Assembly: GCA_964573825.1 (NCBI GenBank)
Contig: CAZNNA010000001.1
Location: 1-50,005 of the forward strand
Origin: an uncultured Treponemataceae bacterium
GTDB lineage: Bacteria > Spirochaetota > Spirochaetia > Treponematales > UBA12059
Direction of reading: 5' to 3'
DNA length: 50,005 nucleotides
Below the pieces are notes generated by a model. The model was given only the letters and a program-made list of their open reading frames with translations. It searched no databases and was not told where the DNA came from. Positions 10,905 to 30,246 of this stretch are shown one piece after another (the stretch's first letter is position 1; each line of letters starts with the position of its first letter). The translations under genes and the position numbers were made by a program.

Positions 10905-10953
10905 CGCTCTCTCCTTGCTTGACACGGGTAGTCCGTGCGGGTATCATAAGAAT

Positions 10954-10972
10954 GATAATGATTATCATTATC
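10954..10972. promoter_or_regulatory. Fur box in the divergent promoter region
   Basis: GATAATGATTATCATTATC matches the classical 19-bp Fur consensus GATAATGATAATCATTATC at 18/19 positions. It sits in the only AT-rich stretch between the two divergent genes. Confidence 0.7.
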
Positions 10973-11000
10973 ATAATAAGGCATGTCAAGGAGTCTCGAT

Positions 11001-11435
11001 ATGAGCGTACTTAAGGTTATCTACTGGAGCGGTACGGGTAATACCAAGGCCATGGCCGAGGCCGTGGCCAAGGGGGCCCGGGCGGCGGGCGCGACCGCCC
11101 AGCTGCTCGACGTCTCCGGCGTCGACGCGGCCAAGGCCCTGGAGGCCGACGCCTTGGCCCTGGGTTGCCCCGCGATGGGCGCGGAGGTGCTCGAGGAGGC
11201 TGAGATGGAACCCTTCGTCTCGGCGCTCGAGTCCGCCGGCCTCGGAGGCAAGCGCCTCGGGCTCTTCGGCTCCTATGACTGGGGCGACGGTCAGTGGATG
11301 CGCGAGTGGAAGGAGCGTATGGAGAAGGCCGGCGCGTCGGTGCTCGGCGAGGGCGTCATGGCCAACAACGCGCCCGACGCGGCGGCCCTCGGCGCCTGCG
11401 AGGCCCTGGGCGCGGCCCTGGCCGGAAAGGCCTAG
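11001..11435 (+). CDS. short-chain flavodoxin
   Basis: VIYWSGTGNTKAMAE FMN phosphate-binding loop, LGCPAMG and FGSYDWGDGQWM. Collinear with clostridial flavodoxins. AAGGAG RBS at 10988-10993. Confidence 0.95.
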   Translation: MSVLKVIYWSGTGNTKAMAEAVAKGARAAGATAQLLDVSGVDAAKALEADALALGCPAMGAEVLEEAEMEPFVSALESAGLGGKRLGLFGSYDWGDGQWMREWKERMEKAGASVLGEGVMANNAPDAAALGACEALGAALAGKA

Positions 11436-11440
11436 GCCCC

Positions 11441-12070
11441 ATGACGGAAGGCGCGGTCCCGGACCGCCTGGGCATCGAGCTCTACTATGCGCTCGATGCC
11501 TTGCCCGCGGAGGAGCATCTGTTCTCACTCATTGCGTATCATGGCGCGCCTACCGTCTCCGGGCTCAAGCCCGCGACGATGCTCTGCTTCGGGAATGGCC
11601 GCAAGGCCCTCCTGGACGCCTGGCGCGCGCGCGGCGCCTCCGCCTGCGCTGAGCTCGGGTTGGCTTGCACCGAGCTGCGCGGCGGAGAGACCGGTATCAA
11701 CGTCCTGCTCTATAGGGCCGGGGCTCTCCTCGGCGCCCTGGAGGAGCCCGAGGCGACGGCCTTGCTCCGGGAGCAGGGCTACGACGTTCCCGCCTCGCTC
11801 GAGCGCTACCTCGAGCGCCTCTCGTTCCGCTTCGCGGATGCGTGCCCGCACGAGGTCGGCGTCTTCCTGGGTATCCCCGCGGAGGACGTGCGCGGCTTCA
11901 TGCGGCACGGCGGCATGAATTGCCATTTCTGCAGCTATTGGAAGGTGTACCACGAGCCAGAGGCCGCCCGGGAGCGCTTCGCGCGCTTCGACGAGGCTCG
12001 CCGGGCGGTGGGCCGGGCCATACTCGCCGGTAGGCTCCGCGCCCCCTGGGCGGAACGAGCGAGCGCCTAA
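11441..12070 (+). CDS. DUF3793-like protein
   Basis: GAPTVSGLKPATM...CPHEVGVFLGIPAEDVRGF...C.FCSYWKVY resembles DUF3793, which I recall as often flavodoxin-adjacent. The ORF-track N-terminal extension overlaps the flavodoxin gene and is rejected. Confidence 0.7.
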   Translation: MTEGAVPDRLGIELYYALDALPAEEHLFSLIAYHGAPTVSGLKPATMLCFGNGRKALLDAWRARGASACAELGLACTELRGGETGINVLLYRAGALLGALEEPEATALLREQGYDVPASLERYLERLSFRFADACPHEVGVFLGIPAEDVRGFMRHGGMNCHFCSYWKVYHEPEAARERFARFDEARRAVGRAILAGRLRAPWAERASA

Positions 12071-12897
12071 TGAGCATACGCAAGCTGGCCGTCTACGGTA
12101 AGGGCGGTATAGGAAAGTCCACCACGGTCTCCAATCTCTCGGCGGCGCTCGCCGTGGCGGGGTATAGGGTCATGCAGATCGGCTGCGATCCCAAGTCCGA
12201 TTCCACGACCAACCTCCTGGGCGGCGAGCGCATGGCGACGGTGCTGGACGCCATGCGCGGCTCGCGCTCGGTGGTCCTTAAGGACATCGTCAGGGAGGGG
12301 TTCGGAGGCGTCCTCTGCGTCGAGGCGGGCGGACCGACGCCAGGCATAGGCTGCGCCGGGCGCGGCATCATAGCGGCCTTCGAGAAGCTCGAGGAGCTCG
12401 ACGCCTTCGGCCGCTATCGGCCGGACGTCGTCCTCTACGACGTACTCGGGGACGTCGTCTGCGGCGGCTTCGCCATGCCCATGCGCAGGGGCTACGCCGA
12501 CGAGATCGTCATAGTCAGCTCGGGCGAGATGATGGCGCTCTACGCGGCCGGCAACATCGCCGGAGCGCTGCGGAACTTCCAGGGACGGGGCTACGCGACG
12601 CTCCGGGGCCTCGTCCTCAATCGACGCAACGTCGATGACGAGCGGGCCCTAGTGGAGCGCGCGGCGTCGGAGATGGGCGCCTCCATAGTCGGCGAGGTGC
12701 CGCGCTGCGGCCTCGTGCAGGAGGCCGAGGCCGAGGGCAAGACCGTGGTCGAGCGCTTTCCCGATAGCGACATGTGCGCCGTCTATCGAGCCCTGGCCCT
12801 CGAGCTCGTGGAGGTAGAGGCCGCGCCTCAGGCCGCGCCTCAGGCCGCGCCTTTGAGCGCGCCTTTGGGCGACGGCTCCGGGGAGCTCGCCTCATGA
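12070..12897 (+). CDS. NifH/BchL/CfbC-family ATP-dependent reductase component (nitrogenase iron protein-like)
   Basis: Walker A YGKGGIGKST, switch I CDPKSDST, and both 4Fe-4S ligand contexts GIGCAGRGI and YDVLGDVVCGGFAMPMR. C-terminal AAPQ/AAPQ/AAPL/SAPL tail. TAATG overlap with the upstream gene. Confidence 0.95.
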   Translation: MSIRKLAVYGKGGIGKSTTVSNLSAALAVAGYRVMQIGCDPKSDSTTNLLGGERMATVLDAMRGSRSVVLKDIVREGFGGVLCVEAGGPTPGIGCAGRGIIAAFEKLEELDAFGRYRPDVVLYDVLGDVVCGGFAMPMRRGYADEIVIVSSGEMMALYAAGNIAGALRNFQGRGYATLRGLVLNRRNVDDERALVERAASEMGASIVGEVPRCGLVQEAEAEGKTVVERFPDSDMCAVYRALALELVEVEAAPQAAPQAAPLSAPLGDGSGELAS

Positions 12898-14243
12898 GGG
12901 CCGACGCCACCGACGAGATGACCATAGGGCGGCTGGCCGGCGATCCGGGGCGGGTCCTGGGCACGGAGGCCTCCGATTCCACGCTCCACTACTGCTCTCC
13001 GGCCCACGGAGGCTGGGGCGTCGTACGGACGGCCCTCCTCGTGCCCGAGACCTACCTGCTCTTCGCCTGCCCCGCGGCCTGCGGTCGCCACGGCGCCATA
13101 GCCGCCATCGAGCAGGGTTACAAGGACCGGGTCGGCTACCTCTGCCTGGAGGAGGACGAGATAGTCCTCGGCGGCTACGAGCCCGAGATCGAGCGCGGGG
13201 TCGGCGAGGCGCTCGCGGCCCTCAAGGCGGCCGGCCGAGCCCCCCGGGCCCTGATGCTCTGCGTGAGCTGCATAGACGACCTCCTGGCTACCGACCATGA
13301 GGCCGCCCTGGCGAGGCTGGAGGCCGAACACGGCCTGCCCGTCCGCCTGGCCCGCATGAACCCCATCATGATCGACGGGAAGCTGCCGCCGGCCCAGCGC
13401 ATCCAGCGGACCATGTACGAGTTCCTCGAGCCCGCGACTGATCGCGACGACGGCGTCCTCCTCCTCGGGAGCTTCGTTCCGCCGGCCCGCTCTTCCGAGC
13501 TCGCCCGCCTCGTCTCCGCCCTGGGCCTCGGGCCGCTGCGCCATCCGTCCTTCTACGATAGCCTCGAAGAGTTCCGCGCCTCGGCGAGAAGTCGCCGGGC
13601 CTTGGTCCTCCGGCCGGAAGGCGCCGCGGCGGCCGCCTATGCGGAGGAGCGGCTCGGGATTTCCTGCCTGGCCGCGCCGGTGGCCTATAGCGAGGCCCTC
13701 GTGGCCGAGCGGTATCGGGCGATCGTCGACTTCCTCCTGCCCGTGGGCGCCGAGCGCGCCCTGGCCTTGGCCCTGGCGAGGCGAGGGGCCGAGGAGGCGG
13801 CCGCGGCGGCGGAGCGCGCGGCCCGCGCCCTCCTGGGCGCGCGGGTGGCTGTCGACTCGACGGTCAGCGCCTCTCCCTTCGACCTGGCCCTGGCCCTGGT
13901 CGAGGCCGGCGTCGACGTCGAGCGGATCTACGCCGAGCGCCTCCCCGCCCATGAACGAGCCTCCTTCGATCGCCTGGCCAGGCTGAGGCCAGGCCTCGTC
14001 GTCTCCAACCCGAGTCACATGAGGCGCCATGCCGGGCGGCCCGAGCGGCCCCTGGCGGACCTGGCCCTGGGCTTCGCCGCCGCCTACGCCTCCGGCGCGC
14101 CTCGGACGGTGCCCCTGGCCTTCGACGAGGGGCTCTACGGCTACGAGGGCAGGCGCCTCGTCATGGAGGCCCTCGAGGCGGCCAGCGCCGGGGACGCGCC
14201 TGACCTGGAGAGCCAGGTGCGCGACTACGGGCTCGTCGTATGA
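12894..14243 (+). CDS. nitrogenase component-1 type oxidoreductase, NifD/NifE/BchN-like subunit
   Basis: ATGA overlap with the nifH-like stop. Cys pattern YCSPAHG-x25-FACPAAC-x(63/66)-LCVSC is spaced like the NifD/NifE cluster ligands. General Oxidored_nitro-like layout. Confidence 0.8.
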   Translation: MRADATDEMTIGRLAGDPGRVLGTEASDSTLHYCSPAHGGWGVVRTALLVPETYLLFACPAACGRHGAIAAIEQGYKDRVGYLCLEEDEIVLGGYEPEIERGVGEALAALKAAGRAPRALMLCVSCIDDLLATDHEAALARLEAEHGLPVRLARMNPIMIDGKLPPAQRIQRTMYEFLEPATDRDDGVLLLGSFVPPARSSELARLVSALGLGPLRHPSFYDSLEEFRASARSRRALVLRPEGAAAAAYAEERLGISCLAAPVAYSEALVAERYRAIVDFLLPVGAERALALALARRGAEEAAAAAERAARALLGARVAVDSTVSASPFDLALALVEAGVDVERIYAERLPAHERASFDRLARLRPGLVVSNPSHMRRHAGRPERPLADLALGFAAAYASGAPRTVPLAFDEGLYGYEGRRLVMEALEAASAGDAPDLESQVRDYGLVV

Positions 14244-14256
14244 GAAAGGCGCAGCA

Positions 14257-15474
14257 ATGAGTAGGCTCCTTCAGACCCTGCCGCCCCTGTCGCCCGACTA
14301 CTCGGGCGTGGCCTCGGCCCTGCACGATCTCGGCGCGCTCACGGTCATCCACGACGCCTCGGGCTGCACCGGCACCTACGCCGGCTACGACGAGCCGCGC
14401 TGGTTCGGCAGCCGGAGCCCGGTCTTCTGTTCGGGTCTACGGGACCTGGACGCGGTCATGGGCGACGACGAGAAGCTCCTTTCCAAGCTTCGCCTGGCCG
14501 CTGCCGAGGCGCGGCCGCCCCTGGCGGCGGTGGTCGGGAGCCCCGTGCCCATGGTGGTGGGCTTCGACTTCCAGGGCTTCGCCGCGCTGGCCGAGCGCGA
14601 GACGGGCGTACCGACCCTCGGCTTCCCGGCCAACGGCCTCGGGCTCTATGACGACGGGCAGCGGGCGGCCTACGCGGCCCTCTTCGAGCGCTTCCTTCCC
14701 GACGGGATCCCGCGCGAGCCGCGGACCGTCAACCTGCTCGGCGCCTCGGCCCTCGACGGCTTCGATGACGAGGCCCTGGACCTGCTCGAGGCCCTGGCTT
14801 CCGAGGCCGGGCTCCGGCGCCTGGCCGTCTGGGGCGCCCGCTCGCCGCTCTCGGAGCTTACGAGGAGCGGGGCGGCCGCGGTCAATTGGGTCGTGACGGC
14901 CGCGGCCCTGCCCTTGGCCAGGCGGCTCCGCGAGCGCTACGGCACGCCCTTCGTCGTAGGGCTGCCCATAGGCTCCCGCGAGCGCAGGCGCCTGCTGGCA
15001 GAGCTGGCCGCTATCGGGGGCTCGGTCGGAGCGCCTCTTATGGCCAGGGAGAGGGAAGGGGAGACCCTGGCCGACGCTCGGGACGGCGAGGCCGCTCGCT
15101 CGGCGCGCCGCCGGGTCCTGGTCGTCGGCGAGCGGCTGCTCTGCGAGTCCCTGAGAGCCTGGCTCGAGGGCGAGCTCGGCCTCGGGCCCGTCGCGGTCGC
15201 CGGCTTCTTCTCCGACGACCCGTACTACGCCCGCAGAGGTTATAAAAAATATATAACAGAAGCCGAGGCCTCGAACGCGCTCCGCGAGCCGGGCCTCGAG
15301 CTCGTCATAGGGGATCCGCTCCTTTCGGGCCTCCTATCTTCGGCTCGCCTCGTACCCCTGCCGCACGCGGCCCTGTCGGGCCGCCTCTACCGGGAATCCC
15401 GCTCCCGCCTCTTCGAGGCGCGGGGCCTTGCATCGTTAACGTCTCTCCTAGGAGGTTCTCATGATTACGCATAG
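14257..15474 (+). CDS. nitrogenase component-1 type oxidoreductase, NifK/NifN/BchB-like subunit
   Basis: Starts at MSRLLQTLPPLSPDYSG. Contains HDASGCTG...VFCSGLRDLDAVMG. The third canonical Cys position reads GSPVPMVVG (no Cys). Confidence 0.75.
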   Translation: MSRLLQTLPPLSPDYSGVASALHDLGALTVIHDASGCTGTYAGYDEPRWFGSRSPVFCSGLRDLDAVMGDDEKLLSKLRLAAAEARPPLAAVVGSPVPMVVGFDFQGFAALAERETGVPTLGFPANGLGLYDDGQRAAYAALFERFLPDGIPREPRTVNLLGASALDGFDDEALDLLEALASEAGLRRLAVWGARSPLSELTRSGAAAVNWVVTAAALPLARRLRERYGTPFVVGLPIGSRERRRLLAELAAIGGSVGAPLMAREREGETLADARDGEAARSARRRVLVVGERLLCESLRAWLEGELGLGPVAVAGFFSDDPYYARRGYKKYITEAEASNALREPGLELVIGDPLLSGLLSSARLVPLPHAALSGRLYRESRSRLFEARGLASLTSLLGGSHDYA

Positions 15475-16560
15475 GACGGCCCCACGGCTCGCCCTCGTCA
15501 CCCTGCTCCTGGCCGCGGCCCTGGCCTCGGCCTTCGGGCAGGCGGGCCGGGCCGCTACCCGCGCCATAGTCGACCAGACCGGCGCCACGGTCGTCATTCC
15601 CGCCAAGGTGGAGCGGGTGGTCATCACCTCGCTCTGGCCCCTGCCCTCGGTCTTCTGCCTGGTCGACGGCTCCGGCAAGCGCCTCGTCGGCATGCATCCC
15701 GCCTCGCTCAGCGCGGCCAAGACCTCGATGCTGGCCAAGACGACGCCCTCAAGGCCTCGACCTCCTTCATGAAGGGCAGCTCGCTCAATATCGAGGAGCT
15801 CCTTAAGCTACGCCCCGACGTGGTGCTCTACAGCGCCGTCAATACCGGGGAGCGCGAGCTGCTCGAGAAGGCCGGGCTCAAGGCCGTAGGCTTCAGCACG
15901 ACGGTGGCCGAGTTCAACACCCTGGAGACGGTCGTCTCCTGGATGGATCTCCTCGGAGAGATCCTGGACAAGAAGACTCGTGCCGAGGATATCAAGCGCT
16001 ACGGCTACGAGGCCCTCGGCTCTATCTATTCCCGGACCTGGAACCTCTCCGACGCTAAGAAGCCCCGGGCGCTCATACTCTTCCGCCATAGCGATAAGGA
16101 GATTGTCGCCACGGGCAGTAACTTCTTCGGCGACTTCTGGCTACGCTCCACCGGCGCCATCAACGTGGCGGCCTCGCTCAAGGGCAACCAGCCGGTCAAC
16201 ATGGAGCAGGTCTACGCCTGGAACCCCGATATCATCTACGTGACCAATTTCAGCGCCTCCCTGCCCGAGGACTTCTACGCGGGCAAGATAGGGGGCCAAG
16301 ACTGGAGCAAGGTCGCGGCGGTCAGGAACCGCAAGGTCTACAAGTCGCCGCTCGGCCACTATCGCTGGTTCCCGCCGAGCTCCGACGCCCCGCTCATGCT
16401 GCTCTGGATGGCCACCAAGAATCAGCCGGAGCTGTTCAAGGACGTCGACTTCGAGCGGCGCCTCCGCGACTACTTCCTTCGCTTCCACGACTACCGCCTG
16501 AGCGACGAGGACATACGCTCCATCCTCAATCCGCCGCGCGAGGCCGCCGACGGTGTTTGA
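15461..16560 (+). pseudogene. periplasmic binding protein of the FecB/BtuF/HmuT class (Peripla_BP_2-like), interrupted by a frameshift near 15740
   Basis: The N-terminal part (signal peptide, ...VVITSLWPLPSVFCLVDG...HPASLSAAKTSMLAK) is in one frame. The continuation ...DALKASTSFMKGSSLNIEELLKLRPDVVLY... is in the frame of ORF 15769..16560. Together they make one normal-length binding protein. Confidence 0.75.
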
Positions 16561-17620
16561 TCCCGGTCCGGGCACGGCCGCCGGGGTCGCCGCCGGGCGG
16601 CGGTCCCGGGCGCCCGCCCTCGTCCTGGCCTTCGCCCTCCTCGGGCCCCTGGCCGTCGCCTGCCTCGGCCTCGGGCGGCTCTGGGTTCCGCCCTCGCGCA
16701 TCGTGGGCATCCTGGCGGCCAGGGCGGCTCCGTCCCTGGCTCCGACCGAGCCGGCCTGGGCCGACTTCGAGGAGGCGGTCATCATGAACGTTCGCCTGCC
16801 GCGCATCCTCATGGCCATGCTCGTGGGCGCCGGGCTCGCCCTGGCGGGAGGCGCCTTCCAGGGCCTCTTCGCCAACCCGCTGGCCACGCCCGATACCCTC
16901 GGCGTGGGGGCGGGCGCCTCCTTCGGCGCCGCCTTGGGCATACTGCTGTCGGAAAGCTTCCTCGTCGTGCAGGCCTGCTCCCTCGGCATGGGCCTCGTCG
17001 CCATGGGCCTGACCTATGCCGTCAGCAAGGTCAAGGAGCGCCGCTCCGTCCTCATGATTGTGCTGTCGGGCATAGTGACCGGCGCCTTCTTCCAGGCCCT
17101 CATCTCCCTCACCAAGTATGTGGCCGACCCGGAGACCAAGCTCCCGGCCATCACCTACTGGCTCCTCGGCAGCATAGCCGACGTGTCCTACGCCAGCATC
17201 GCCATGGGCGCGCCCGCCATCATCCTCGGCATGGCCGTCATCGTGGCGCTCCGCTGGCGGCTGGATATCCTCTCCCTGAGCGACGACGAGGCGTGGTCCC
17301 TGGGCCTCAACGTGCCAGTCCTGCGCTGGGCCGTCATAGGCGCCTCCACGCTTATCACCGCTTCCGCCGTGTCGCTCTGCGGCCAGGTCGGCTGGGTCGG
17401 CCTCGTCGTGCCGCACGCGGCCAGGATGATCGTGGGCAGCGACCACAGGACCATGATCCCGATGAGCGCGGCGCTCGGCGCCGGCTTCCTCCTCGTCGTC
17501 GACACCTTCGCGCGCTCGGCCACGGCCGCGGAGATACCGCTGTCCATCCTGACCGCCATGATAGGGGCCCCGTTCTTCGCGGCCCTCCTCAGGAAGACCC
17601 AGGGGGGCGCATGGAGCTGA
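16553..17620 (+). CDS. FecCD/BtuC-family ABC permease
   Basis: About 10 hydrophobic segments with typical FecCD sequence (RLPRILMAMLVGAGLALAGGAFQGLFANPLATPDTLGV). GTG start overlaps the upstream stop. Confidence 0.9.
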   Translation: MFDPGPGTAAGVAAGRRSRAPALVLAFALLGPLAVACLGLGRLWVPPSRIVGILAARAAPSLAPTEPAWADFEEAVIMNVRLPRILMAMLVGAGLALAGGAFQGLFANPLATPDTLGVGAGASFGAALGILLSESFLVVQACSLGMGLVAMGLTYAVSKVKERRSVLMIVLSGIVTGAFFQALISLTKYVADPETKLPAITYWLLGSIADVSYASIAMGAPAIILGMAVIVALRWRLDILSLSDDEAWSLGLNVPVLRWAVIGASTLITASAVSLCGQVGWVGLVVPHAARMIVGSDHRTMIPMSAALGAGFLLVVDTFARSATAAEIPLSILTAMIGAPFFAALLRKTQGGAWS

Positions 17621-18411
17621 GCTTTCGCGTAGAGGACGGCGCGTTCTGGTACCGCAGCGACCGGGTCCTGTTTTCCGGAGTCGGCTTCGAGCTCGGGCGC
17701 GGCGAGATAGCCGCCATACTCGGCCCCAACGGCGTCGGCAAGACGACCTTCCTGCGCTGCGCCATGGGCCTTCTCCCGTGGCGCCGGGGCCGCTCGACCC
17801 TGAACGGCCGCGACGTCCGGAGCCTGGCCCCGGGGGAGCTCTGGAGGATGGTGGCCTACGTGCCCCAGGCCCGGGCCCTGCCCTTCGCCTTCTCGGTCAT
17901 GGACGTGGCGCTGATGGGGCGGAGCGCCCACCTAGGGGCCTTCTCCCAGCCGGGTCCCGACGACCGGCGCCTGGCGGAGGCGGCGCTCGAGCGCATGGGC
18001 GTGCTTAGGCTCCGCGACAGGCCCTTCGCCGAGCTGAGCGGCGGAGAAGCCCAGATGGTCTTCATCGCCCGGGCCCTGGCGGCCCGCCCCCGGCTCATCG
18101 TCCTCGACGAGCCCGAGTCCCACCTGGACTTCCGTAACCAGCTCGTCATCCTGGGGGCGCTCCGGGATCTGGCCCGCGAGGAGGGCATAGCCTGCGTAGT
18201 CAATACGCACTTTCCCGAGCACGCGCTCCGGATAGCCGATAGGGCGCTGATCCTCGGCAAGGACGGGGCCGGCCACCGCTTCGGCCAGGCCGATGACCTC
18301 ATGGACGAGGAGACCCTCGAGGCCTTCTTCGGCGTACGCGTACGCCGACTGGATTTCTCCGACTCGGGCGAGCCGTACCGCGCGATCTATCCCCTGGAGC
18401 CCGTATGCTGA
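17611..18411 (+). CDS. ABC transporter ATP-binding protein (FepC/FecE/BtuD-like)
   Basis: Walker A GPNGVGKTT, signature LSGGEAQM and Walker B LIVLDEPE. Start overlaps the permease stop. Confidence 0.9.
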   Translation: MELSFRVEDGAFWYRSDRVLFSGVGFELGRGEIAAILGPNGVGKTTFLRCAMGLLPWRRGRSTLNGRDVRSLAPGELWRMVAYVPQARALPFAFSVMDVALMGRSAHLGAFSQPGPDDRRLAEAALERMGVLRLRDRPFAELSGGEAQMVFIARALAARPRLIVLDEPESHLDFRNQLVILGALRDLAREEGIACVVNTHFPEHALRIADRALILGKDGAGHRFGQADDLMDEETLEAFFGVRVRRLDFSDSGEPYRAIYPLEPVC

Positions 18412-19298
18412 GCCCCCGCCCCCGCGACGATTCCGCCCGCCTCTTCGCCGACCTGCGGGCCGGAACGCGCCTTAGGGTCCTCGTGGCCCCCGTAGCCCAG
18501 GCGCGCCTCCCTGAGTTTAACCGTTTCCTCGGCTACCTGCGTTCCCTCGGCGCGCTCTCCTTTCATGCCGTGCTGCCCCGGGCGGATATAGCCGCCTGGC
18601 TGTATTATAGAACGATTACTAAAAGCGATTCTCCCCTCATAGCCTCGGCCTGCGCCGGCGTGACGAGCGGACTCCGGGCGCGGGAGCACCCGGCCCTGCG
18701 TTACCTGCCGCCCATACCGAGCCCCCTCCTCTGCACGGCCATCTACCTGCGGCGCTACCTCGGCTACCGCGAGCCCTTCGCCTTTCTCTCGCCCTGCGCC
18801 CTCAAGTGGACGGAGTTCTCGCCCGGAGGCGTCGAGCTCGTCAGGTACAACGCGACCATACGCGGCATCAAGGCTCGGCTCGAGGCCGAGGGCGTGGACC
18901 TGGGGAGGTTTCCGGAGCTTTACCTGGACGACGAATCGAGGGGCTTGACCGTAGGCGCCTTCGGCGAGCTGGGCGCCTCCCTCGGCGCGGTCCTACCGGG
19001 CCTACGCTGCCTTACGTCGCACGGCCTCGGGCGCTCCCTGGCCCTGCTCGACGATCCCGCGCGCTTTCCCGGCGTCGAGGCCGAGGCCTTGGATCTCCTG
19101 GAACCCTACGCCTGTCCCGCCGGCTGCGACGGGGGCTCCGGCGTCGGGACCTGCGAGGATTGCCCCATGAAGGATGGCGCTCCCGCCTCCTCGCCGGCTC
19201 CGCGTCCTCGCCCCACGAGGGAGGAGCTTCTAGCCCTCTTCGCTCGTATGGACGACGAGCTTCGCTCGGAGGATTTTATCTACGGCTCGGTCGTGTGA
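18405..19298 (+). CDS. minimal [FeFe]-hydrogenase H-domain-like protein (Fe_hyd_lg_C-like) without accessory cluster domains
   Basis: Collinear with the H-domain of the window's own HydA. VAPVAQARL aligns with IAPAVRVAL, IASACAG with FTSCCPAW, PSPLLCTAIYLRR with MSPQAMMGSIIR, LSPCALKWTE with MPCVAKKYE, and YACPAGCDGGSG with MACPGGCVGGAG. Confidence 0.7.
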   Translation: MLSPRPRDDSARLFADLRAGTRLRVLVAPVAQARLPEFNRFLGYLRSLGALSFHAVLPRADIAAWLYYRTITKSDSPLIASACAGVTSGLRAREHPALRYLPPIPSPLLCTAIYLRRYLGYREPFAFLSPCALKWTEFSPGGVELVRYNATIRGIKARLEAEGVDLGRFPELYLDDESRGLTVGAFGELGASLGAVLPGLRCLTSHGLGRSLALLDDPARFPGVEAEALDLLEPYACPAGCDGGSGVGTCEDCPMKDGAPASSPAPRPRPTREELLALFARMDDELRSEDFIYGSVV

Positions 19299-19383
19299 CC
19301 GCATCGGCTCCTCCCTTGCCCCCGCGGTTCAAAAGGACTAGGCTGTAAGGGCCCCCCTAGGGGGGAGGAGCAAGGAGGTCGCC

Positions 19384-20304
19384 ATGGTCCGACGCATAGG
19401 CGCCGCGAGGCCTATCGTCGCCAGGGGAAACCTGGCCCGAGCCCTGGCCGTCAGCGCCTGGCTCCTGGCGCTTTACGCCTGCGGCGCTCGCCAGGCCGCC
19501 GAGCCTGAGGCCCGGCCGGCCGCGCCCTCGCCGCCGGCTCGGAACGACCGCCAGGAGCGCGGCCTCGCGGGAGAGGTAAGCCAGGTGACGACGCGCCTCT
19601 TCAGGCCTCCCCAGGCCTACGGGAGCGATCCGGCGGAACGTAGCGCCTGGACGCTCTGGTCCTACTCAATAGACGGCTACGGTCGCGACGGCTTCCTTAC
19701 CGAGCAGCGCGCCTTCGACGCTCAGAATCGCCTGACTGGCCTGTCGATACGAGAGCGCGATCGAGACGGCGTGCCGAGCGGCCTGGCCATGCGCGGGGCC
19801 GATGGAAGCCTGGAGGCTCGCTGCGCCTATCGCTACGACAAGGCGGGGCGCCTCGTTCGCGAGGAATGGTACGACGGCTCGGGGACGCTGACGGGCTGGT
19901 ACGACTATGAATACGATTCGAAAGGGCGACTAGCCAGGCGCCGTATGGAGACGAGGTATTCCGACGGTAGCGTTGGTCGCATGGAGACTGCCTACGCCCA
20001 TGACGAGCGGGGGCGACTCGTCGCCGAGGATCATATCGACCCTCGCTATGAAGGAGTTTCCCTGCGCCTCGAATACGCCTACGATGGCGAGCGGCTCTCC
20101 CGGACCCTGCACCTGCAGCGCGGGCGTTGGCTCGAGGGAGTCGTCTTCTTCTCCTACGACGCGCGGGGCAACCTGGCGCTCGAGTCGTCGTACCAGATAC
20201 CGGAGAGCGTCGACGACGCTCCGTTCCGCCGGGCCTCGTCGCCTGGTGATGTTCCCATCGCGTACGTGTCGTCGGAACGACGCTACGAGTATCGCTACTA
20301 CTAG
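19384..20304 (+). CDS. lipoprotein with YD/RHS-like repeats
   Basis: Signal peptide with lipobox LALYAC. Repeated YD-type motifs (YDKAGRLVREEWYDGSG, YDYEYDSKGRL, HDERGRLVAED, YDARGNL). AAGGAGG RBS. Confidence 0.6.
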   Translation: MVRRIGAARPIVARGNLARALAVSAWLLALYACGARQAAEPEARPAAPSPPARNDRQERGLAGEVSQVTTRLFRPPQAYGSDPAERSAWTLWSYSIDGYGRDGFLTEQRAFDAQNRLTGLSIRERDRDGVPSGLAMRGADGSLEARCAYRYDKAGRLVREEWYDGSGTLTGWYDYEYDSKGRLARRRMETRYSDGSVGRMETAYAHDERGRLVAEDHIDPRYEGVSLRLEYAYDGERLSRTLHLQRGRWLEGVVFFSYDARGNLALESSYQIPESVDDAPFRRASSPGDVPIAYVSSERRYEYRYY

Positions 20305-21494: not shown

Positions 21495-23246
21495 TTAGGC
21501 CTCAGGCCTGACCTTCCAGGCATGGGCCTTGCGCTGCTCGTTCCACATGGCCGCGTAGGCGCGGCCCGCTGTCAGGAGCTCTTCGTGACGGCCGCGCTCG
21601 GCTATGCGCCCTTCCTTTAGGACGATGATCTGGTCGGCCCTGGTCACGGTGCTCAGGCGGTGCGCTATCACGATGATCGTGCGGCCCTTGATGAGCTCCG
21701 CTATGGCTTCCTGGATATAGAGTTCGTTCTCCGGGTCGAGCGAGGCCGTGGCCTCGTCCAGGAGCACGATGGGCGCGTCCTTGAGTATGGCCCTGGCTAT
21801 GGAGACGCGCTGCTTCTCGCCGCCTGACAGCGTCGATCCTCCCTCGCCGACCATGGTGTCGTAGCCGTCGGGCAGAGCCGCGATGAAGTCGTGGCAACGG
21901 GCCTGTTTGGCGGCCGCTATGACCTCCTCTATGGTGGCGTCCTTCCTGCCGACGCGTATGTTGGCCAGGATGCTGTCGTTGAAGAGGTAGACGTCCTGGA
22001 AGACCATGCTGACGCTGGCGAGGAGGTCGTCCGTGCGATACTCCGATAAGGGACGGCCGCCGACGAGTACCGAGCCTTCGTTGGTATCCCAGAAGCGCGC
22101 GATGAGTCGAGTTATAGTAGATTTTCCCGACCCTGACGGGCCCACGAGGGCGGTCATGCTGCCCTCGGGTACCGAGAAGCTGATGTTTTTTAGTACGTCC
22201 GTATCGTGGTAGCGGAAGCCGACGCCTCGGAATTCTATGTCGTGACGCTCGGGCGCCGATCCCCGGTCGGGCTCCGGCAGGGGCTTGGTCGCGAAGATGT
22301 CCCGGAGCCTCCGCGCTGATATGGCGTAGTACGATAGCTCGGCGAAGCCTATGAGCACCTTGCTGAGCGGGTCGTACATGCGCGTCCCGACTATCAGGAA
22401 GAAGAGGAAATTCGGCACGGAGAGGCTGCCGTCGACCACGAAGCGGGAACCCGCGAGCATGATCAGGGCCACGCCGGTATAGAGCACGAGCACGCCGAAG
22501 ATCACCGACGGGCCGCTCGAGCCCTCGAGCAGTATGCTCTTCTTCTTCAGATCGACGAAGGAGCGCTCCAGGCGCTGGAATTTATCTCCCTGTAGGTTGT
22601 GGGCCTTGATATGCTTCATGCCGTCCAGGTACTCGAGCATGCGGGACGCCGCCTCGTTCTTGGCCTTGACGTGCTTGGCGCCCAGGAAGGACACGAGGGC
22701 GCGCGAGCCGAGCGCCGCCAGGATCGAGAGCGGTATGGGGGCGAGCGCGATGAGCGTCATGCGCCAGTCTATAGGCAGTAGGAAGGCCGCGAAGACGAGG
22801 GGCAGGGTGAAGGAGCCTATGGCGTCCATGAAGAGGTGGCTGAGCATCGTCTCGACGTTGCCGTAGTCCTGGAGCATCAGCGCCGTAATGTCGCCCGGGT
22901 CTCGGCCCTTGAAGAAGCCCATGGGCAGGCGGCGCAGGTGCTCGCCCAGGGCCAGCCTGCCCTCGCAGGAGAGGGAATAGGCCCCGATATTCTCGACGTT
23001 GTAGGAGGCCCTGCCGACCAGGAAGAGTAGCGCCAGGGACGCGGCGAGCCAGGCGCACAGCCAGGCTAGGGCCTGGACGTCGAGGGCGGTTCCCGGGCTT
23101 GAGAGCGGCTTGAGTAACTCTAGGATAACCATGAGTATGATGAAGTAGGGTTGCCCCTGGAGCATCGACTTGAGGACCTGGAGCCCCAGCGGCTTCCAGA
23201 GCGCCCCGGGCTTGCCGTTGGTTATCGTGTTGAGGAAGCGTTTCAT
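21495..23246 (-). CDS. ABC transporter, fused permease/ATPase half-transporter (B-type, second copy)
   Basis: Six-TM N-terminal domain. GPSGSGKST, LSGGEKQR, LLDEATASLD and VIAHRL. Start at MKRFLN overlaps the upstream stop (ATGA). Confidence 0.9.
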   Translation of the reverse strand: MKRFLNTITNGKPGALWKPLGLQVLKSMLQGQPYFIILMVILELLKPLSSPGTALDVQALAWLCAWLAASLALLFLVGRASYNVENIGAYSLSCEGRLALGEHLRRLPMGFFKGRDPGDITALMLQDYGNVETMLSHLFMDAIGSFTLPLVFAAFLLPIDWRMTLIALAPIPLSILAALGSRALVSFLGAKHVKAKNEAASRMLEYLDGMKHIKAHNLQGDKFQRLERSFVDLKKKSILLEGSSGPSVIFGVLVLYTGVALIMLAGSRFVVDGSLSVPNFLFFLIVGTRMYDPLSKVLIGFAELSYYAISARRLRDIFATKPLPEPDRGSAPERHDIEFRGVGFRYHDTDVLKNISFSVPEGSMTALVGPSGSGKSTITRLIARFWDTNEGSVLVGGRPLSEYRTDDLLASVSMVFQDVYLFNDSILANIRVGRKDATIEEVIAAAKQARCHDFIAALPDGYDTMVGEGGSTLSGGEKQRVSIARAILKDAPIVLLDEATASLDPENELYIQEAIAELIKGRTIIVIAHRLSTVTRADQIIVLKEGRIAERGRHEELLTAGRAYAAMWNEQRKAHAWKVRPEA

Positions 23247-25105
23247 TCTCGATCCTTCGCCTTTCCGGCCGGGGCCGCCGCTTTCTCGAGCTCCCAGCCG
23301 CGCGCCTTGATATGCACGTCCCACATGCCGCGATAGAGGCCGCCCCGCGCCACGAGCTCCTCGTGCGTTCCCGCCTCGGCTATGCGTCCCTTGTCTATGA
23401 CGAGGATGGCGTCGGCGTCGGTGATGGTGTAGAGGCGGTGGGCTATGATGATGACCGTCTTGCCCTGTAGCACCACGGAGAGGGCCTCCTGGATCCTGGC
23501 CTCGTTCTCGGGGTCGGCGTAGGCCGTGGCCTCGTCCAGGACCACGATGGGCGCGTCCTTGAGTATGGCCCGCGCCAAGGCCACGCGCTGTTGTTCCCCG
23601 CCCGATAGGTGGGTGCCGCCTTCGCCTATGCGGGTCGCGTAGCCCTTGGGTAGGCCCTCGATGAAGTCGTGGATCTGCGCCGCCTTGGCGGCCTTGACGA
23701 CCTCGTCGAAGGAGGCCGCAGCGTTACCCATGTGTATATTCTCTTCTATGGTGTCGAAGAAGAGGAACACGTCCTGGAATACGGTGGAGACCATGTCGTT
23801 GAGCCGCGCCACCGGGATGTCCCGGACGTCGACGCCGCCTATGCGTACGGCGCCGGCGCCCACGTCCCAGAATCGGCCGGCTAGGTTGGCTATCGTCGTC
23901 TTGCCGCCGCCCGAGGGCCCCACGAGGGCGGTGACCGTACCGGGCCTCGCGGCGAATGACACGTCCTTGAGTATGTCCGTGTCGCCGTAGGCGAAGGAGG
24001 CGCGGTCGAACTCGACCGAGGCGTCGGCTGGCGTCTTGGGCGAGGATGGCTCGGGAAGCTCGGGGGCCTCGAGGATGTCGTCGATGCACGACAAGCCGGT
24101 CTCTATCTGCCTGGTCAGGGCGGCCAGCCTCATGAGCTTATAGAGGGGTACCGCGATGCCCATGCCCACGTAAAGGAAGAGGAACGTCGTTGAGACGAGC
24201 GTAGCGTAGGCAGGGCCTTCGGCGGAGCGTAACACCAGTATCGCTATCGGGACGACGAAGAGGGCGCTCGAGGATAGGACGGTGAGGAAGCCCGTGAACG
24301 ACGTGGCCGAGACGCGTATCCAGTGTATGGTCAGGTCCCGATAGGCGTAGACGTCGTCGGCGAAGCGCTTGAAGGCGTTGACGCTCTGGTTGAAGACCTT
24401 GACGACGCTCATGCCTCGTATGTACTCGACGATGGTGCCGTTCATCGCCCCGAGCCGCGCCTGCCATTGCTCGTAAAGGCCCATGGACCCTTTGCTGAAC
24501 ATCGACGACTGGGCGATCATGGCGAGGGGCAGGGGAATGGCCACGCCGAGCGCTAGGCGCCAGTCGACGATGAAAAGGGCTACGAGCGTACCGATAGGCA
24601 AGACCGCAGCCTGCACGATATCGATGATGTGGTGGGCCACGAAGAGCTCGATGCGCTCCACGTCATCCGATAGTACCTTCTTGATGCCGCCGTTGGTTCG
24701 CGTGGTGAAGTAGCCCATGGGCAGGCGCGCCAGCTTGGCAGCCAGGGCCTTCCTGATCTCGTAGAGAATATTAAATGCTGCTACGTGGGACATCATGCCG
24801 GCCGCGTAGGTGATGGCGCCGAAGGCCGCCACGCCGCCTATCGTCAGCCAGCCTAGGCGAGCTACGTAGTCCATCCTGATGGCTGCCGGCGCGGTTATGT
24901 TGGCTACGAGCTCCTGGACGAGTAGGAATATCGTGACGTAGGGCGTCATCTGCGCAGCCACGGCCACGATGCCGAGGAGCGAGGCCGCGACGAGGAGCGG
25001 CGCCTTGGTCCCGGCTATCTCGAGGAGCCTGGCTACGCCTTTCTTGCGTCTTGCCTTGAGTTGTGCCTCGAATATCGAGGCGTCCGCCTTGATGGAGTCT
25101 TTCAT
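23243..25105 (-). CDS. ABC transporter, fused permease/ATPase half-transporter (A-type, second copy)
   Basis: GPSGGGKTT, LSGGEQQR, VVLDEATAYAD and IIAHRL. AAGGAGGAG RBS. Confidence 0.9.
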   Translation of the reverse strand: MKDSIKADASIFEAQLKARRKKGVARLLEIAGTKAPLLVAASLLGIVAVAAQMTPYVTIFLLVQELVANITAPAAIRMDYVARLGWLTIGGVAAFGAITYAAGMMSHVAAFNILYEIRKALAAKLARLPMGYFTTRTNGGIKKVLSDDVERIELFVAHHIIDIVQAAVLPIGTLVALFIVDWRLALGVAIPLPLAMIAQSSMFSKGSMGLYEQWQARLGAMNGTIVEYIRGMSVVKVFNQSVNAFKRFADDVYAYRDLTIHWIRVSATSFTGFLTVLSSSALFVVPIAILVLRSAEGPAYATLVSTTFLFLYVGMGIAVPLYKLMRLAALTRQIETGLSCIDDILEAPELPEPSSPKTPADASVEFDRASFAYGDTDILKDVSFAARPGTVTALVGPSGGGKTTIANLAGRFWDVGAGAVRIGGVDVRDIPVARLNDMVSTVFQDVFLFFDTIEENIHMGNAAASFDEVVKAAKAAQIHDFIEGLPKGYATRIGEGGTHLSGGEQQRVALARAILKDAPIVVLDEATAYADPENEARIQEALSVVLQGKTVIIIAHRLYTITDADAILVIDKGRIAEAGTHEELVARGGLYRGMWDVHIKARGWELEKAAAPAGKAKDRE

Positions 25106-25121
25106 TGGATTAATCTCCTCC

Positions 25122-26534
25122 TTAATCCGCTACCGCGATCGGCGCGGCTGTCGATCCCGTTTCCGCTTCCGGCGCGCCGTTCGTGGCTACCCGGGCGCCG
25201 AGGCGCTTGAACTCCGCGAGCACCATGACGAGGGCCAGGAGCACCACCACGGTGTCTATGGCCAGGGAACCTCGGTAGACCCATCCGAGCCCGAAGCGGG
25301 CGGGGACCATGAGCATGACCGGTACGTAGAGGAAGAGCTGGCGCGCTAGTCCCATCATCGCGGCGGGGCCTCCCTTGCCCATGGCGGGATAGAGCGTCAT
25401 GACCATGAAGACGAGGGGCAGCAGCGGAAGGACTGCGATCATGATCCTATAGTTGGCAAGATCTCCCGCCGAGAAGACCGAACCGGGCATCATGAAGCCG
25501 AGGACCGGGGAGGCGAAGGCCGTCAGCGCGGCCCAGAAGGGCACGACGAGGATGGTGGCTATGCCAAGGAAGGTCCAGAAACCGGTCTTGACCCTGTCGT
25601 AGCGGCCGGCGCCGAAGTTAATGCCGACGACCGGCTGGAGCGCCCGCATGAGGCCGAAGATGGGCGTCAGCATGAAGGTCATCAGCCTGAGCGAGGCGCC
25701 GTAGAAGGCGATGTCGAAGCTACCGCCGAGTCGCGATATGACGTTGAAGATTATGGCGCCCTGGATCAGGGTCATGATCGACATGATGAGCGAGGACGAG
25801 CCTGTCGACATGATCTTACCCGCTATCGCCTTGCTCATGCCTATGGCGAAGGGCTTGGCCTCGAACGAGGCCTTGCCTGAGGCCAGGTAGCGGAGTCCTA
25901 CGATGCTGTAGACGAGCATGCCCACGTTGGTGCCCCAGGCGGCGCCCGCGACGCCGAGGCCCAAGGGGCCCATGAAGAGGTAGTTGCAGGCTATGTTGAC
26001 GACGAGCCCGGAGCCCATCATTAATGCGGCCTTGCCCATGCGTCCCTCCGCGCGGACGACCATGTTGACGCCGAGGCCGTGAACGGTGAAGGGCAAGCCC
26101 ACGAGCATGAGCCTGAAGTACCGGAGCGCATGGTCGAGCACCTCTCCCGAGGCGCCCATGAGCCCGAGGAAGGGCTCGGCGATGAGGAGGAGTACGGCTA
26201 TCGCTCCGGCCGAGATGGCCAGCGATAGGCCGTTCAGGTTGGCTATGACCCGCTCCTGCGTCCGCTTGTCTCTCGCCCCTATCGCTATCGAGAGCACCGA
26301 GCCCGCCCCTACGCCGACGAGGGCTCCGAAGCCCATGGCGAAGCTGGTCAGGTTGCCCGCTATGCTGACGCCCGCCAAGGCCGACTCTCCGCAGTAGCGA
26401 CCGACGAAGACCGCGTCCATGACGCCGTTGAAGCCGTAGAGTAGCATGGCGATGATGGCGGGCGGCGATAGCCGCCAGGCCACCTTCCAGAGGCTGTCTC
26501 CCAGGATCATGCGTCGTTGAGTATCAGTATCCAT
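25122..26534 (-). CDS. MATE family efflux transporter
   Basis: 470 aa with about 12 hydrophobic helices and a typical MATE N-terminus (LWKVAWRLSPPAIIAMLLYGFNGVMDAVFVGR). AAGGAGAG RBS. Confidence 0.9.
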   Translation of the reverse strand: MDTDTQRRMILGDSLWKVAWRLSPPAIIAMLLYGFNGVMDAVFVGRYCGESALAGVSIAGNLTSFAMGFGALVGVGAGSVLSIAIGARDKRTQERVIANLNGLSLAISAGAIAVLLLIAEPFLGLMGASGEVLDHALRYFRLMLVGLPFTVHGLGVNMVVRAEGRMGKAALMMGSGLVVNIACNYLFMGPLGLGVAGAAWGTNVGMLVYSIVGLRYLASGKASFEAKPFAIGMSKAIAGKIMSTGSSSLIMSIMTLIQGAIIFNVISRLGGSFDIAFYGASLRLMTFMLTPIFGLMRALQPVVGINFGAGRYDRVKTGFWTFLGIATILVVPFWAALTAFASPVLGFMMPGSVFSAGDLANYRIMIAVLPLLPLVFMVMTLYPAMGKGGPAAMMGLARQLFLYVPVMLMVPARFGLGWVYRGSLAIDTVVVLLALVMVLAEFKRLGARVATNGAPEAETGSTAAPIAVAD

Positions 26535-26555
26535 GGTTCTCTCTCCTTATCGTGT

Positions 26556-28337: not shown

Positions 28338-28353
28338 GGGTGTCTCCTATCGT

Positions 28354-30227: not shown

Positions 30228-30246
30228 GATAATGAGTATCAATATC
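30228..30246. promoter_or_regulatory. Fur-like box between the transporter operon and the AraC gene
   Basis: GATAATGAGTATCAATATC matches the 19-bp Fur consensus at 16/19 positions. It lies in the AT-rich core of the 116-bp divergent intergenic region. Confidence 0.55.

Follow-up and report, generated by a model that had tools for sequence, protein, structure and literature searches.

A predicted Fur-regulated operon of an uncultured Treponemataceae bacterium joins genes for an uncharacterised nitrogenase-like enzyme to those for a chelate-class importer

Among the nitrogenase-like enzymes that have been described, DPOR, COR and CfbCD are tetrapyrrole reductases that operate with a simple [4Fe-4S] cluster (PMC13474568). 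The MarBHDK (Group IV-C) and IsrBHDK (Group IV-F) enzymes are encoded in nutrient-scavenging operons with a transporter nearby (PMC13474568; PMC11423573). In 2012, Dos Santos et al. described NifH-like genes accompanied by two NifE/N-like genes and situated beside ATP-binding cassette (ABC) transporters in Clostridia and other organisms, with a reduced set of cysteines in the encoded proteins, and proposed that metal transport is coupled to cofactor assembly (PMC3464626). Several clades are still without a known function, and the function of these remaining clades was named in a 2026 review as a main open problem (PMC13474568). The subject of this report is a locus found in a stretch of 50,005 nucleotides from an uncultured Treponemataceae bacterium (contig CAZNNA010000001.1, positions 1 to 50,005), the whole of which is referred to below as the window. 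Nine genes in this locus stand behind a predicted Fur box and encode, among other proteins, a NifH-like ATPase (NflH), two divergent NifD/K-like subunits (NflD and NflK) and the components of an ABC importer, so that the nitrogenase-like genes have a transporter nearby, as do the Mar and Isr genes. The reading preferred here, to which a probability of roughly 45% is assigned, is that the operon is repressed by Fur and that its reductase, driven by ATP and flavodoxin, frees the iron of a chelate brought in by the importer.

Gene families were assigned by Pfam and NCBIfam profile scores, and those named in the original prediction, which had been made from the nucleotide sequence alone, were confirmed. 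The features of the locus are collected in Table 1. The nine plus-strand genes that follow the Fur box extend from 11001 to 19298, with successive junctions of 5, -1, -4, 13, -14, -8, -10 and -7 nt. The earlier description of a first gene followed by eight others on the same strand, with junctions of at most 13 nt or overlapping, is therefore correct (range -14 to +13 nt). It would appear from this layout that the nine genes are co-transcribed, and the putative operon is predicted to respond to iron. The best-matching named relatives come from termite-gut Treponema and other Spirochaetia.

The placement of the Nfl proteins was judged by their scores against curated models and by sequence comparison with the PDB. 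NflH contains the P-loop GKGGIGKS and the motifs DPKSDST and DVLGDVVCGGF (both switch regions), and its Cys95 and Cys131 align with the cluster ligands of MarH and NifH (C97 and C132 in NifH), as is consistent with the ATPase bearing both 4Fe-4S ligands that had been predicted. Its scores against the curated models were 330 bits for CfbC (cutoff 402), 321 for NifH (394), 198 for BchL (345) and 185 for BchX (331). Among solved structures, 258 bits were obtained with MarH, about 250 with NifH and 161 with BchL. As side observations, NflH has a low-complexity C-terminal tail (…AAPQAAPQAAPLSAPLG…, encoded at 12820-12897), and it is 275 aa long, as compared with 267 aa for the 92%-identical protein of locus L002 (related loci are designated by L numbers throughout).

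Both of the following genes belong to PF00148, as the original prediction of two NifD/K-like subunits implied, and the locus thus holds the two components of a nitrogenase-like system, namely a NifH-family ATPase and two adjacent PF00148 genes. The two subunits are highly divergent. NflD gave no NCBIfam match and no PDB match better than E = 0.14. The best relatives of NflK, curated and solved, were NifE (42-45 bits), BchB (30), a MarDK chain (21; 9d9u_C) and CfbD (18). Against the curated models, the D/K-like proteins scored 26 bits for BchB (cutoff 490), 16 for BchN (420), 18 for CfbD (TIGR03282; 268) and 18 for NifD (654). No score exceeded 45 bits against the NifE/D, BchB/N and CfbD models or against the solved NifEN, DPOR and MarDK chains. 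Judged by these scores, the Nif-like proteins of the window do not fall inside a characterised clade, and on this point the original prediction holds.

Four cysteines alone are conserved over 76-77 members of the family, C63 and C126 in NflD and C37 and C58 in NflK. Across the family, NflD retains C63 (part of CGRH) and C126 (part of CxDD), together with H66, D128 and D134. In NflK, C37 (in an HDASGC motif) is conserved in 100% and C58 in 86% of sequences. Because only these four cysteines are conserved, the sequences suggest that NflDK holds one [4Fe-4S] cluster at the subunit interface, to which each subunit would contribute two Cys. The pattern does not fit an enzyme with a P-cluster and a FeMo-co-type cofactor, as the features of these cluster types are reviewed in PMC13474568. 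Genes for NifB, NifEN or radical SAM proteins were absent from the operon, and none recurred in the surveyed loci.

Relatives of the locus were sought with two NflK motifs in a GTDB-based collection containing one genome per species, which gave at least 599 matches, at least 560 of them confirmed, and the proteins of the window were compared by tblastn with the 80 best loci. A binding protein, permease and ATPase of the same class were found before or after NflH-NflD-NflK in most of the 80. Linkage was evaluated in the 45 loci that had at least 3.5 kb of flanking sequence on both sides. In 42 of these, no more than 8 kb separated NflK from a FecCD permease gene, and the loci span Clostridia, Spirochaetes, Synergistaceae, Chloroflexota, Accumulibacter and Rhodoplanes. 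The original prediction had left the conservation of the neighbourhood to be determined, and these results reveal that the linkage of nitrogenase-like and FecBCD-class importer genes is conserved across phyla. Carriers include Clostridium butyricum, Tissierella praeacuta, Christensenella, many Lachnospiraceae, Syntrophomonas wolfei and Treponema socranskii. The order flavodoxin, DUF3793, nitrogenase-like genes and importer recurs in three loci (L041, L071 and L085), at 26-48% protein identity. Several loci contain two or three binding-protein genes for a single permease, an arrangement that is common in chelate scavenging.

The closest relatives of the D/K subunits (52-57% identity) are found in Treponema primitia, Breznakiella homolactica and other termite-gut treponemes, where the neighbours are often a Nik/Opp-type transporter, together with a NicO-like permease, CbiA and a P-type ATPase. 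Because these genes adjoin the closest D/K relatives, the chelated metal need not always be iron.

The site GATAATGATTATCATTATC at 10954-10972 was compared with the 19-nt Fur consensus. It had been predicted to match at 18 of the 19 positions, and so it does on the plus strand; on the minus strand the match is complete. The site contains a perfect 7-1-7 palindrome (TGATAAT-G-ATTATCA). When the sequence was shuffled 100 times with its dinucleotides preserved, no match to the Fur consensus with three or fewer mismatches arose. The 75 nt that hold the box (10926-11000) have a G+C content of 39%, as compared with 67% for the window. Three promoter-like sites were observed in this region against 0.6 expected. 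One of them, on the plus strand, ends 7 bases ahead of the Fur box, and the -10 element of another, on the minus strand, falls inside it. The predicted Fur box is thus situated on a divergent promoter-like pair, of which one site leads into the operon and the other into a gene for a DUF2325 protein. A complete Fur match between two promoter-like sites is the position expected of a member of a Fur regulon. The upstream region had been given as 96 bp; it measures about 75 nt instead, provided that 10925 is the start of the DUF2325 gene.

The DUF2325 protein has a Cys-containing N-terminus, a coiled-coil middle portion and the C-terminal domain for which it is named; a CxxxGxC-like motif in the N-terminus is conserved. 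Its homologues adjoin the nitrogenase-like/importer cluster in L002, in L041 and L059 (metagenome-assembled genomes from Bacillota and Chloroflexota, respectively) and in L064 (Syntrophomonas).

An iron-regulatory context was also observed in relatives of the operon. The most extensive example is L085, an ENA contig (its DUF3793 protein and that of the window share 44% identity) with the gene order DtxR, feoA, feoA, feoB, DtxR, flavodoxin, DUF3793, HD-domain protein, NifH-like, D, K, substrate-binding protein and FecCD. The Bacillota locus L041 has a DUF2325 homologue, DUF3793, flavodoxin, a DtxR-family repressor and, directly upstream of nflH, a Fur-like box with two mismatches. Upstream of the cluster of Syntrophomonas wolfei (L064) are a DtxR-FeoA fusion, a Fur-like box with one mismatch, the DUF2325 homologue and an HD-GYP-type protein. 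DtxR-type genes were also found in L028, L035, L043 and L078, and in L043 they are joined by FeoB and flavodoxin. When 82 loci were scanned with an Escherichia coli-type Fur consensus, sites near the cluster were detected only in L002, L041, L064, L018, L043 and L030. The link to Fur is not universal, or else the E. coli-type consensus is not transferable between phyla. Taken together, the iron link is conserved in part across the relatives, and an iron context that does not depend on Fur recurs as well.

Proteins of the HD_5 or HD-GYP type were encountered between the DUF2325, DUF3793 or flavodoxin genes and the nitrogenase-like genes in several relatives (L064, 5222-6535; L085, 6587-7258; L029, 6598-7137); the window is without such a gene. 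In the Tissierellia loci L018 (5687-7988) and L023, genes for a CobW/HypB/UreG-type GTPase, an additional ABC ATPase and an SBP_bac_6 protein precede nflH, and this three-gene set stands behind a Crp/Fnr-type regulator and Fur-like boxes. Homologues of the three genes are on the opposite strand in L066.

The importer is of type II, and its set of families (PF01497, PF01032 and PF00005) is complete, with no substrate-specific NCBIfam model reaching its cutoff. For the permease, the BtuC, FecC and FhuB models were all under cutoff, BtuC being the best. For the ATPase, the best NCBIfam models, all under cutoff, were of the chelate class (F420-0, corrinoid and heme). Among solved structures, the binding protein was closest to 4ovk, a structural-genomics entry (201 bits), followed by the molybdate/tungstate binder MolA (75 bits), the Ni-binding CeuE of Helicobacter pylori (49 bits) and heme binders (26-34 bits). 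The family assignment of the binding protein, permease and ATPase in the original prediction was borne out, and the exception to it lies in the integrity of the binding-protein gene, which in the window lacks 7 nt (CGGCGCC) that are present in L002, near 15741 (15735-15750). The deletion is located at a short imperfect direct repeat, and it causes a frameshift. The gene is intact, with 368 aa, in L002, a JGI metagenome contig with the gene order of the window and 98% identical proteins, and in L083, a Logan contig with a hydrogenase-like protein identical to that of the window. Because the gene is intact in both of these, the defect is specific to the assembly or strain in the window.

The operon has a mosaic appearance. 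NflH, NflD and NflK are closest to versions from termite-gut Treponema (52-74% identity), and the importer proteins are closest to those of Firmicutes (up to 64% identity for the permease and up to 58% for the binding protein) and show lower identity (43-50%) to the proteins of L010 and L011, two loci of termite spirochaetes.

The flavodoxin, with an AGGAG ribosome-binding site 7 nt ahead of its start, is the likely low-potential electron donor of the operon. The DUF3793 protein that follows it has the invariant residues K43, Y114, P136-H137-E138, D149 and Y166-W167-K168. Its AlphaFold2 model (pLDDT 91) gave no match among PDB folds better than E = 0.08 or TM 0.28, and nothing relevant to DUF3793 or DUF2325 was found in the literature searched. 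The DUF3793 gene adjoins a flavodoxin gene in L041, L071, L085 and L087, and its product is read here as a flavodoxin-associated factor. In L087, the pair occurs without nitrogenase-like genes, and in L086 (Desulfuribacillus alkaliarsenatis) the DUF3793 gene is found beside true nif genes, including those for NifB and AnfO.

The last gene encodes an [FeFe]-hydrogenase-like protein that consists of the H-domain only. In HydA, the H-cluster is held by the motifs TSCCPxW, MPCxxKxxE and ExMxCxxGCxxG. The corresponding motif 1 of the window protein is SACAG, in which the proton-relay Cys is replaced by Ala; motifs 2 and 3 are SPCxLKxxE and EPYACxxGC, with the flanking Met residues replaced by Ser and Tyr. 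Residues C83, C131-K134-E137 and E233-C237-C241 are invariant among 17 homologues. The invariant cysteines are presumably the four ligands of the [4Fe-4S]H part of the H-cluster, with K134 and E137 as the Lys and Glu of motif 2. An AlphaFold2 model (pLDDT 88) found only [FeFe]-hydrogenases as its top Foldseek matches, at TMq 0.6-0.71 and 14-19% identity. Identity with catalytic HydA was considered and rejected on the altered motifs and on a score of 18 bits for TIGR04105 (cutoff 450). When 1.8 billion representatives were searched with a profile, 2016 matches were obtained. Past a few stand-alone proteins, the best of them have a ferredoxin-like N-terminus, the H-domain and an FeS portion, followed by PAS/MCP, GGDEF-EAL or histidine kinase domains. 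The "HydA-like" label given earlier is thus appropriate to the H-domain fold and not to catalysis, the nearest wider relatives being of the sensory type. The gene is situated between nflK and the permease gene in L007, L010 and L011, and because of this its tie to the cluster is not accidental, yet the tie is limited to a small number of lineages of spirochaetes.

Under the proposed reading of the locus, low iron would release the operon from Fur, and the type II (FecBCD/BtuCDF-class) importer would carry a metal chelate into the cytoplasm. Electrons would pass from flavodoxin, possibly with the participation of the DUF3793 protein, to the NifH-like ATPase dimer. The NflH dimer would spend ATP in driving these low-potential electrons into an NflDK heterotetramer by way of its single interfacial [4Fe-4S] cluster, a predicted arrangement like that of DPOR, COR and CfbCD and unlike that of an enzyme with P-cluster and FeMo-co. 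NflDK would then reduce the imported chelate, and its iron would be made available. One potential substrate is the macrocycle of heme or another tetrapyrrole, which is plausible by analogy, in that the known simple-cluster relatives reduce tetrapyrrole rings, CfbCD performing a six-electron ring reduction. Another, also plausible, is a ferric siderophore of a potential too low for ordinary reductases, as the multiple binding proteins and the coupling to ATP suggest. The homology of the binding protein appears indecisive between the two. The hydrogenase-like protein could be an accessory Fe-S protein serving in electron input or sensing. The gene families, the Fur box with its promoter geometry, the close packing of the genes, the cysteine pattern, the linkage to the importer and the recurring iron regulators are observed; the path of the electrons, the substrate and the chemistry, like co-transcription and the response to iron, are inferred. 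The original prediction had offered a reductase induced by iron limitation, with corrinoid remodelling among its possible roles. This reductase is supported in part, by the absence of a characterised clade that would contain the Nfl proteins, by the conserved link to the importer and by the recurrent iron context. The corrinoid role is weakened, and now disfavoured though not excluded, because no cobalamin riboswitch was detected in the window or in 17 related loci; Rfam, applied at its gathering thresholds, detected no other relevant riboswitch in these sequences either.

Several observations weigh against the release of iron as the function of this operon. Only about 10% of the related loci were found to have an iron regulator, the regulator that most commonly adjoins the cluster in Clostridia is of the Crp/Fnr type (7-9 loci), and most of the 82 scanned loci are without an upstream match to the E. 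coli-type Fur consensus. Each complex of the Nfl enzyme would itself consume about 12 Fe. The binding proteins of known ligand that are closest to that of the window are MolA and the Ni-binding CeuE, the scores for heme binders being just those cited above, and the frameshift in the binding-protein gene means that the importer may not work in this strain. The closest D/K relatives, finally, adjoin the Nik/Opp-type transporter, NicO and CbiA. A broader statement, that the widespread clade is the cytoplasmic half of an anaerobic system of iron acquisition, in which iron is released from the heme macrocycle or a siderophore without O2 by an ATP-driven and flavodoxin-fed reaction, is advanced as tentative and somewhat doubtful.

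Other explanations of the locus were weighed as well. The Nfl system might serve in the salvage or remodelling of a tetrapyrrole or metal cofactor that contains no iron (for example, a chelate of Ni or Co, a compound like F430 or a corrinoid). The imported cofactor or its precursor would be reduced for use and not for the release of iron, the control by Fur then reflecting only the flavodoxin or an iron-sparing switch. The characterised relatives of the [4Fe-4S] type, DPOR, COR and CfbCD, all act on tetrapyrroles (PMC13474568), and the best-scoring curated models are CfbC for NflH and BtuC for the permease. The resemblance of the binding protein to CeuE, the neighbours of the D/K genes in termite-gut Treponema and the CobW-type GTPase genes upstream in L018, L023 and L066 point in the same direction. 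Such a role would be unlikely, however, for a locus whose Fur box is perfect and in whose relatives feoAB and DtxR genes (L085) or, elsewhere, DtxR-type repressors accompany the cluster; furthermore, the riboswitch search was negative, and the survey of neighbouring genes turned up none for tetrapyrrole biosynthesis. A scaffold or maturase resembling NifEN, in which metal import would be coupled to the assembly of a metallocluster, for example that of the hydrogenase-like protein, accords with suggestions in the literature (PMC3464626; PMC8890362), with NifE as the best solved and curated relative of NflK and with MolA as the second-best solved relative of the binding protein. The presence of the hydrogenase-like gene in the operon, and its position in L007, L010 and L011, would also be explained, but of about 80 loci with the cluster only 4 also have this gene. 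The conserved Cys number no more than four, and no NifB or radical SAM partner is present in the window or the surveyed loci. FecCD/Peripla_BP_2 importers, moreover, mostly carry organic chelates, and a maturation machine rich in Fe-S clusters would be an odd one to induce in iron starvation. This explanation is regarded as quite improbable.

Separate modules could also have been joined by chance behind one promoter, namely a flavodoxin/DUF3793 pair that spares iron, an importer and a nitrogenase-like enzyme with some unrelated function, or the system could be in decay in this strain. A mosaic origin is suggested by the different affinities of the importer genes (Firmicutes, up to 64%) and the nitrogenase-like genes (termite-gut Treponema, 52-57%), and the DUF3793-flavodoxin pair is able to occur alone (L087) or beside true nif genes (L086). 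Against a chance joining are the adjacency of nitrogenase-like and importer genes in 42 of 45 evaluable loci across phyla and the recurrence, at low protein identity, of the full gene order in L041, L071 and L085. The 7-nt deletion would be in keeping with decay, but the binding-protein gene is intact in contigs of 98-100% protein identity. Very little probability is given to either of these possibilities.

Table 1. Features of the nitrogenase-like/importer locus and their coordinates in the window
Feature	Coordinates	Strand	Details
DUF2325 protein gene, 414 aa	9681..10925	-	Pfam DUF2325 82 bits; shares the Fur-box intergenic region with the operon
Predicted operon promoter, sigma-70-like, TTGACA-17-TATCAT	10919..10947	+	11/12 consensus positions
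Predicted Fur box	10954..10972	.	19/19 (-), 18/19 (+)
Second promoter-like site, TTGACA-17-GATAAT	10989-10961	-	Directed towards the DUF2325 gene
Short-chain flavodoxin	11001..11435	+	PF00258 76 bits; TIGR01753 148 bits (cutoff 123)
DUF3793 protein	11441..12070	+	PF12672 135 bits
NflH, NifH-like ATPase / [4Fe-4S] reductase component	12070..12897	+	PF00142 (Fer4_NifH) 300 bits
NflD, divergent NifD/E-like subunit	12894..14243	+	PF00148 (Oxidored_nitro) 57 bits
NflK, divergent NifK/N-like subunit	14257..15474	+	PF00148 (Oxidored_nitro) 118 bits
Binding-protein gene, Peripla_BP_2 (PF01497), disrupted	15461..16560	+	Two open reading frames: 15461-15772, 15769-16560
FecCD-family permease (type II ABC importer)	16553..17620	+	PF01032 275 bits
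ABC importer ATPase	17611..18411	+	PF00005 92 bits
H-domain-only [FeFe]-hydrogenase-like protein	18405..19298	+	PF02906 (Fe_hyd_lg_C) 27 bits

Downstream of the operon, no rho-independent terminator with a T-run was found after 19298. A GC-rich palindrome (GGGCCCCCCTAGGGGGG, 19340-19370), with no T-run behind it, is situated in the 85-nt gap that follows the hydrogenase-like gene, and the next gene past this gap encodes an RHS-repeat protein (19384-20304). A second Fur-like box in the window (GATATTGATACTCATTATC, 30228-30246, two mismatches on the minus strand) lies between a gene for an AraC-family regulator (30294-31232, plus strand) and a divergent run of minus-strand genes (21495-30177), which includes four half-transporters of the ABC-exporter type and a MatE gene. 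This box may mark a second iron-responsive unit, for instance one for siderophore export or for siderophore import by proteins of the exporter fold.

The release of iron from heme or from tight siderophores without O2 is only partly understood in strict anaerobes. If the proposed function is correct, nitrogenase-like enzymes would have a new physiological role in metal acquisition, and a new route of iron release would be common in gut and other anoxic communities. The locus and its relatives offer a testable hypothesis, that of a reductase induced by iron starvation and acting on the cargo of a chelate importer. They also offer a regulatory handle (the perfect Fur box in the window, DtxR and feoAB elsewhere) and, in flavodoxin, a candidate for the physiological donor. 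The module is present in cultured organisms, among them Clostridium butyricum, Christensenella, Tissierella praeacuta, Syntrophomonas wolfei and Treponema socranskii, and Breznakiella homolactica and T. primitia, in which the nitrogenase-like genes are beside the Nik/Opp-type transporter, are cultured also.

How the Nfl system relates to the described systems can be assessed from the scores and gene contents given above. A true nitrogenase (Nif, Vnf or Anf) has six P-cluster Cys, the FeMo-co ligands Cys275 and His442, and nifB and nifEN as partners. Identity with such an enzyme was rejected on the four conserved Cys, the 18 bits for NifD and the absence of NifB and NifEN from the operon. DPOR, COR and CfbCD are similar to the Nfl system in having two components, a NifH-like ATPase and PF00148 subunits, and a small set of cysteines without FeMo-co ligands. 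Identity with DPOR or COR was rejected on the scores for BchL, BchX, BchB and BchN, and identity with CfbCD on those for CfbC and CfbD and on the presence of two different D/K-like subunits, the catalytic part of CfbD being homomeric and that of Nfl heteromeric. In DPOR the cluster ligands are three Cys and an Asp, in contrast to the two Cys expected from each Nfl subunit. The neighbours of the DPOR, COR and CfbCD genes serve in pigment or F430 biosynthesis, whereas the Nfl genes adjoin an importer and iron regulators.

MarH is the solved structure closest to NflH, but identity of the whole system with MarBHDK was rejected on the 21 bits of NflK to 9d9u_C, the lack of a match for NflD and the lack of a NifB/MarB homologue. 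The Mar and Isr enzymes have a P-/L-cluster ligand set that is absent from the Nfl proteins, and they are found in a sulfur context with a sulfonate/taurine transporter, unlike the iron context (Fur, DtxR and feoAB) and chelate-class transporter of the Nfl genes. Sensory-type [FeFe]-hydrogenase-like proteins resemble the last gene product of the operon in the hydrogenase fold and the four [4Fe-4S]H cysteines, and their H-domains are the closest to it; the window protein differs from them in that it is without a ferredoxin-like N-terminus and without a signalling output domain. Compared by description, the Group VI paralogues of Elusimicrobia (Meheust et al. 2020, 10.1101/765248) also have very divergent D/K proteins without P-cluster motifs, and no NifB, and a tetrapyrrole substrate, perhaps a scavenged one, was proposed for them as it is here for Nfl. 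The Group VI NifH is sister to BchL/X and radical SAM genes abound in its loci (10.1101/765248), whereas NflH is nearer to NifH and MarH than to BchL, and no radical SAM family recurs in the Nfl neighbourhoods.

The transporter-linked clades of 2012 are the nearest described counterpart, and the Nfl system, as matched by description, is most probably the same clade or a sister to it. No iron-regulatory context, flavodoxin/DUF3793/DUF2325 module or hydrogenase-like partner was reported for those clades (PMC3464626). In the literature searched, no paper gives the transporter-linked clade a function or a link to iron regulation, or ties it to that module or to a hydrogenase-like partner. The statement in the original prediction that no characterised system has this architecture thus holds for the literature searched, with the reservation that the co-location of nitrogenase-like and ABC transporter genes had already been described (PMC3464626). 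The Nfl system is, then, an uncharacterised nitrogenase-like clade with a defined physiological context, and not a categorically new system.

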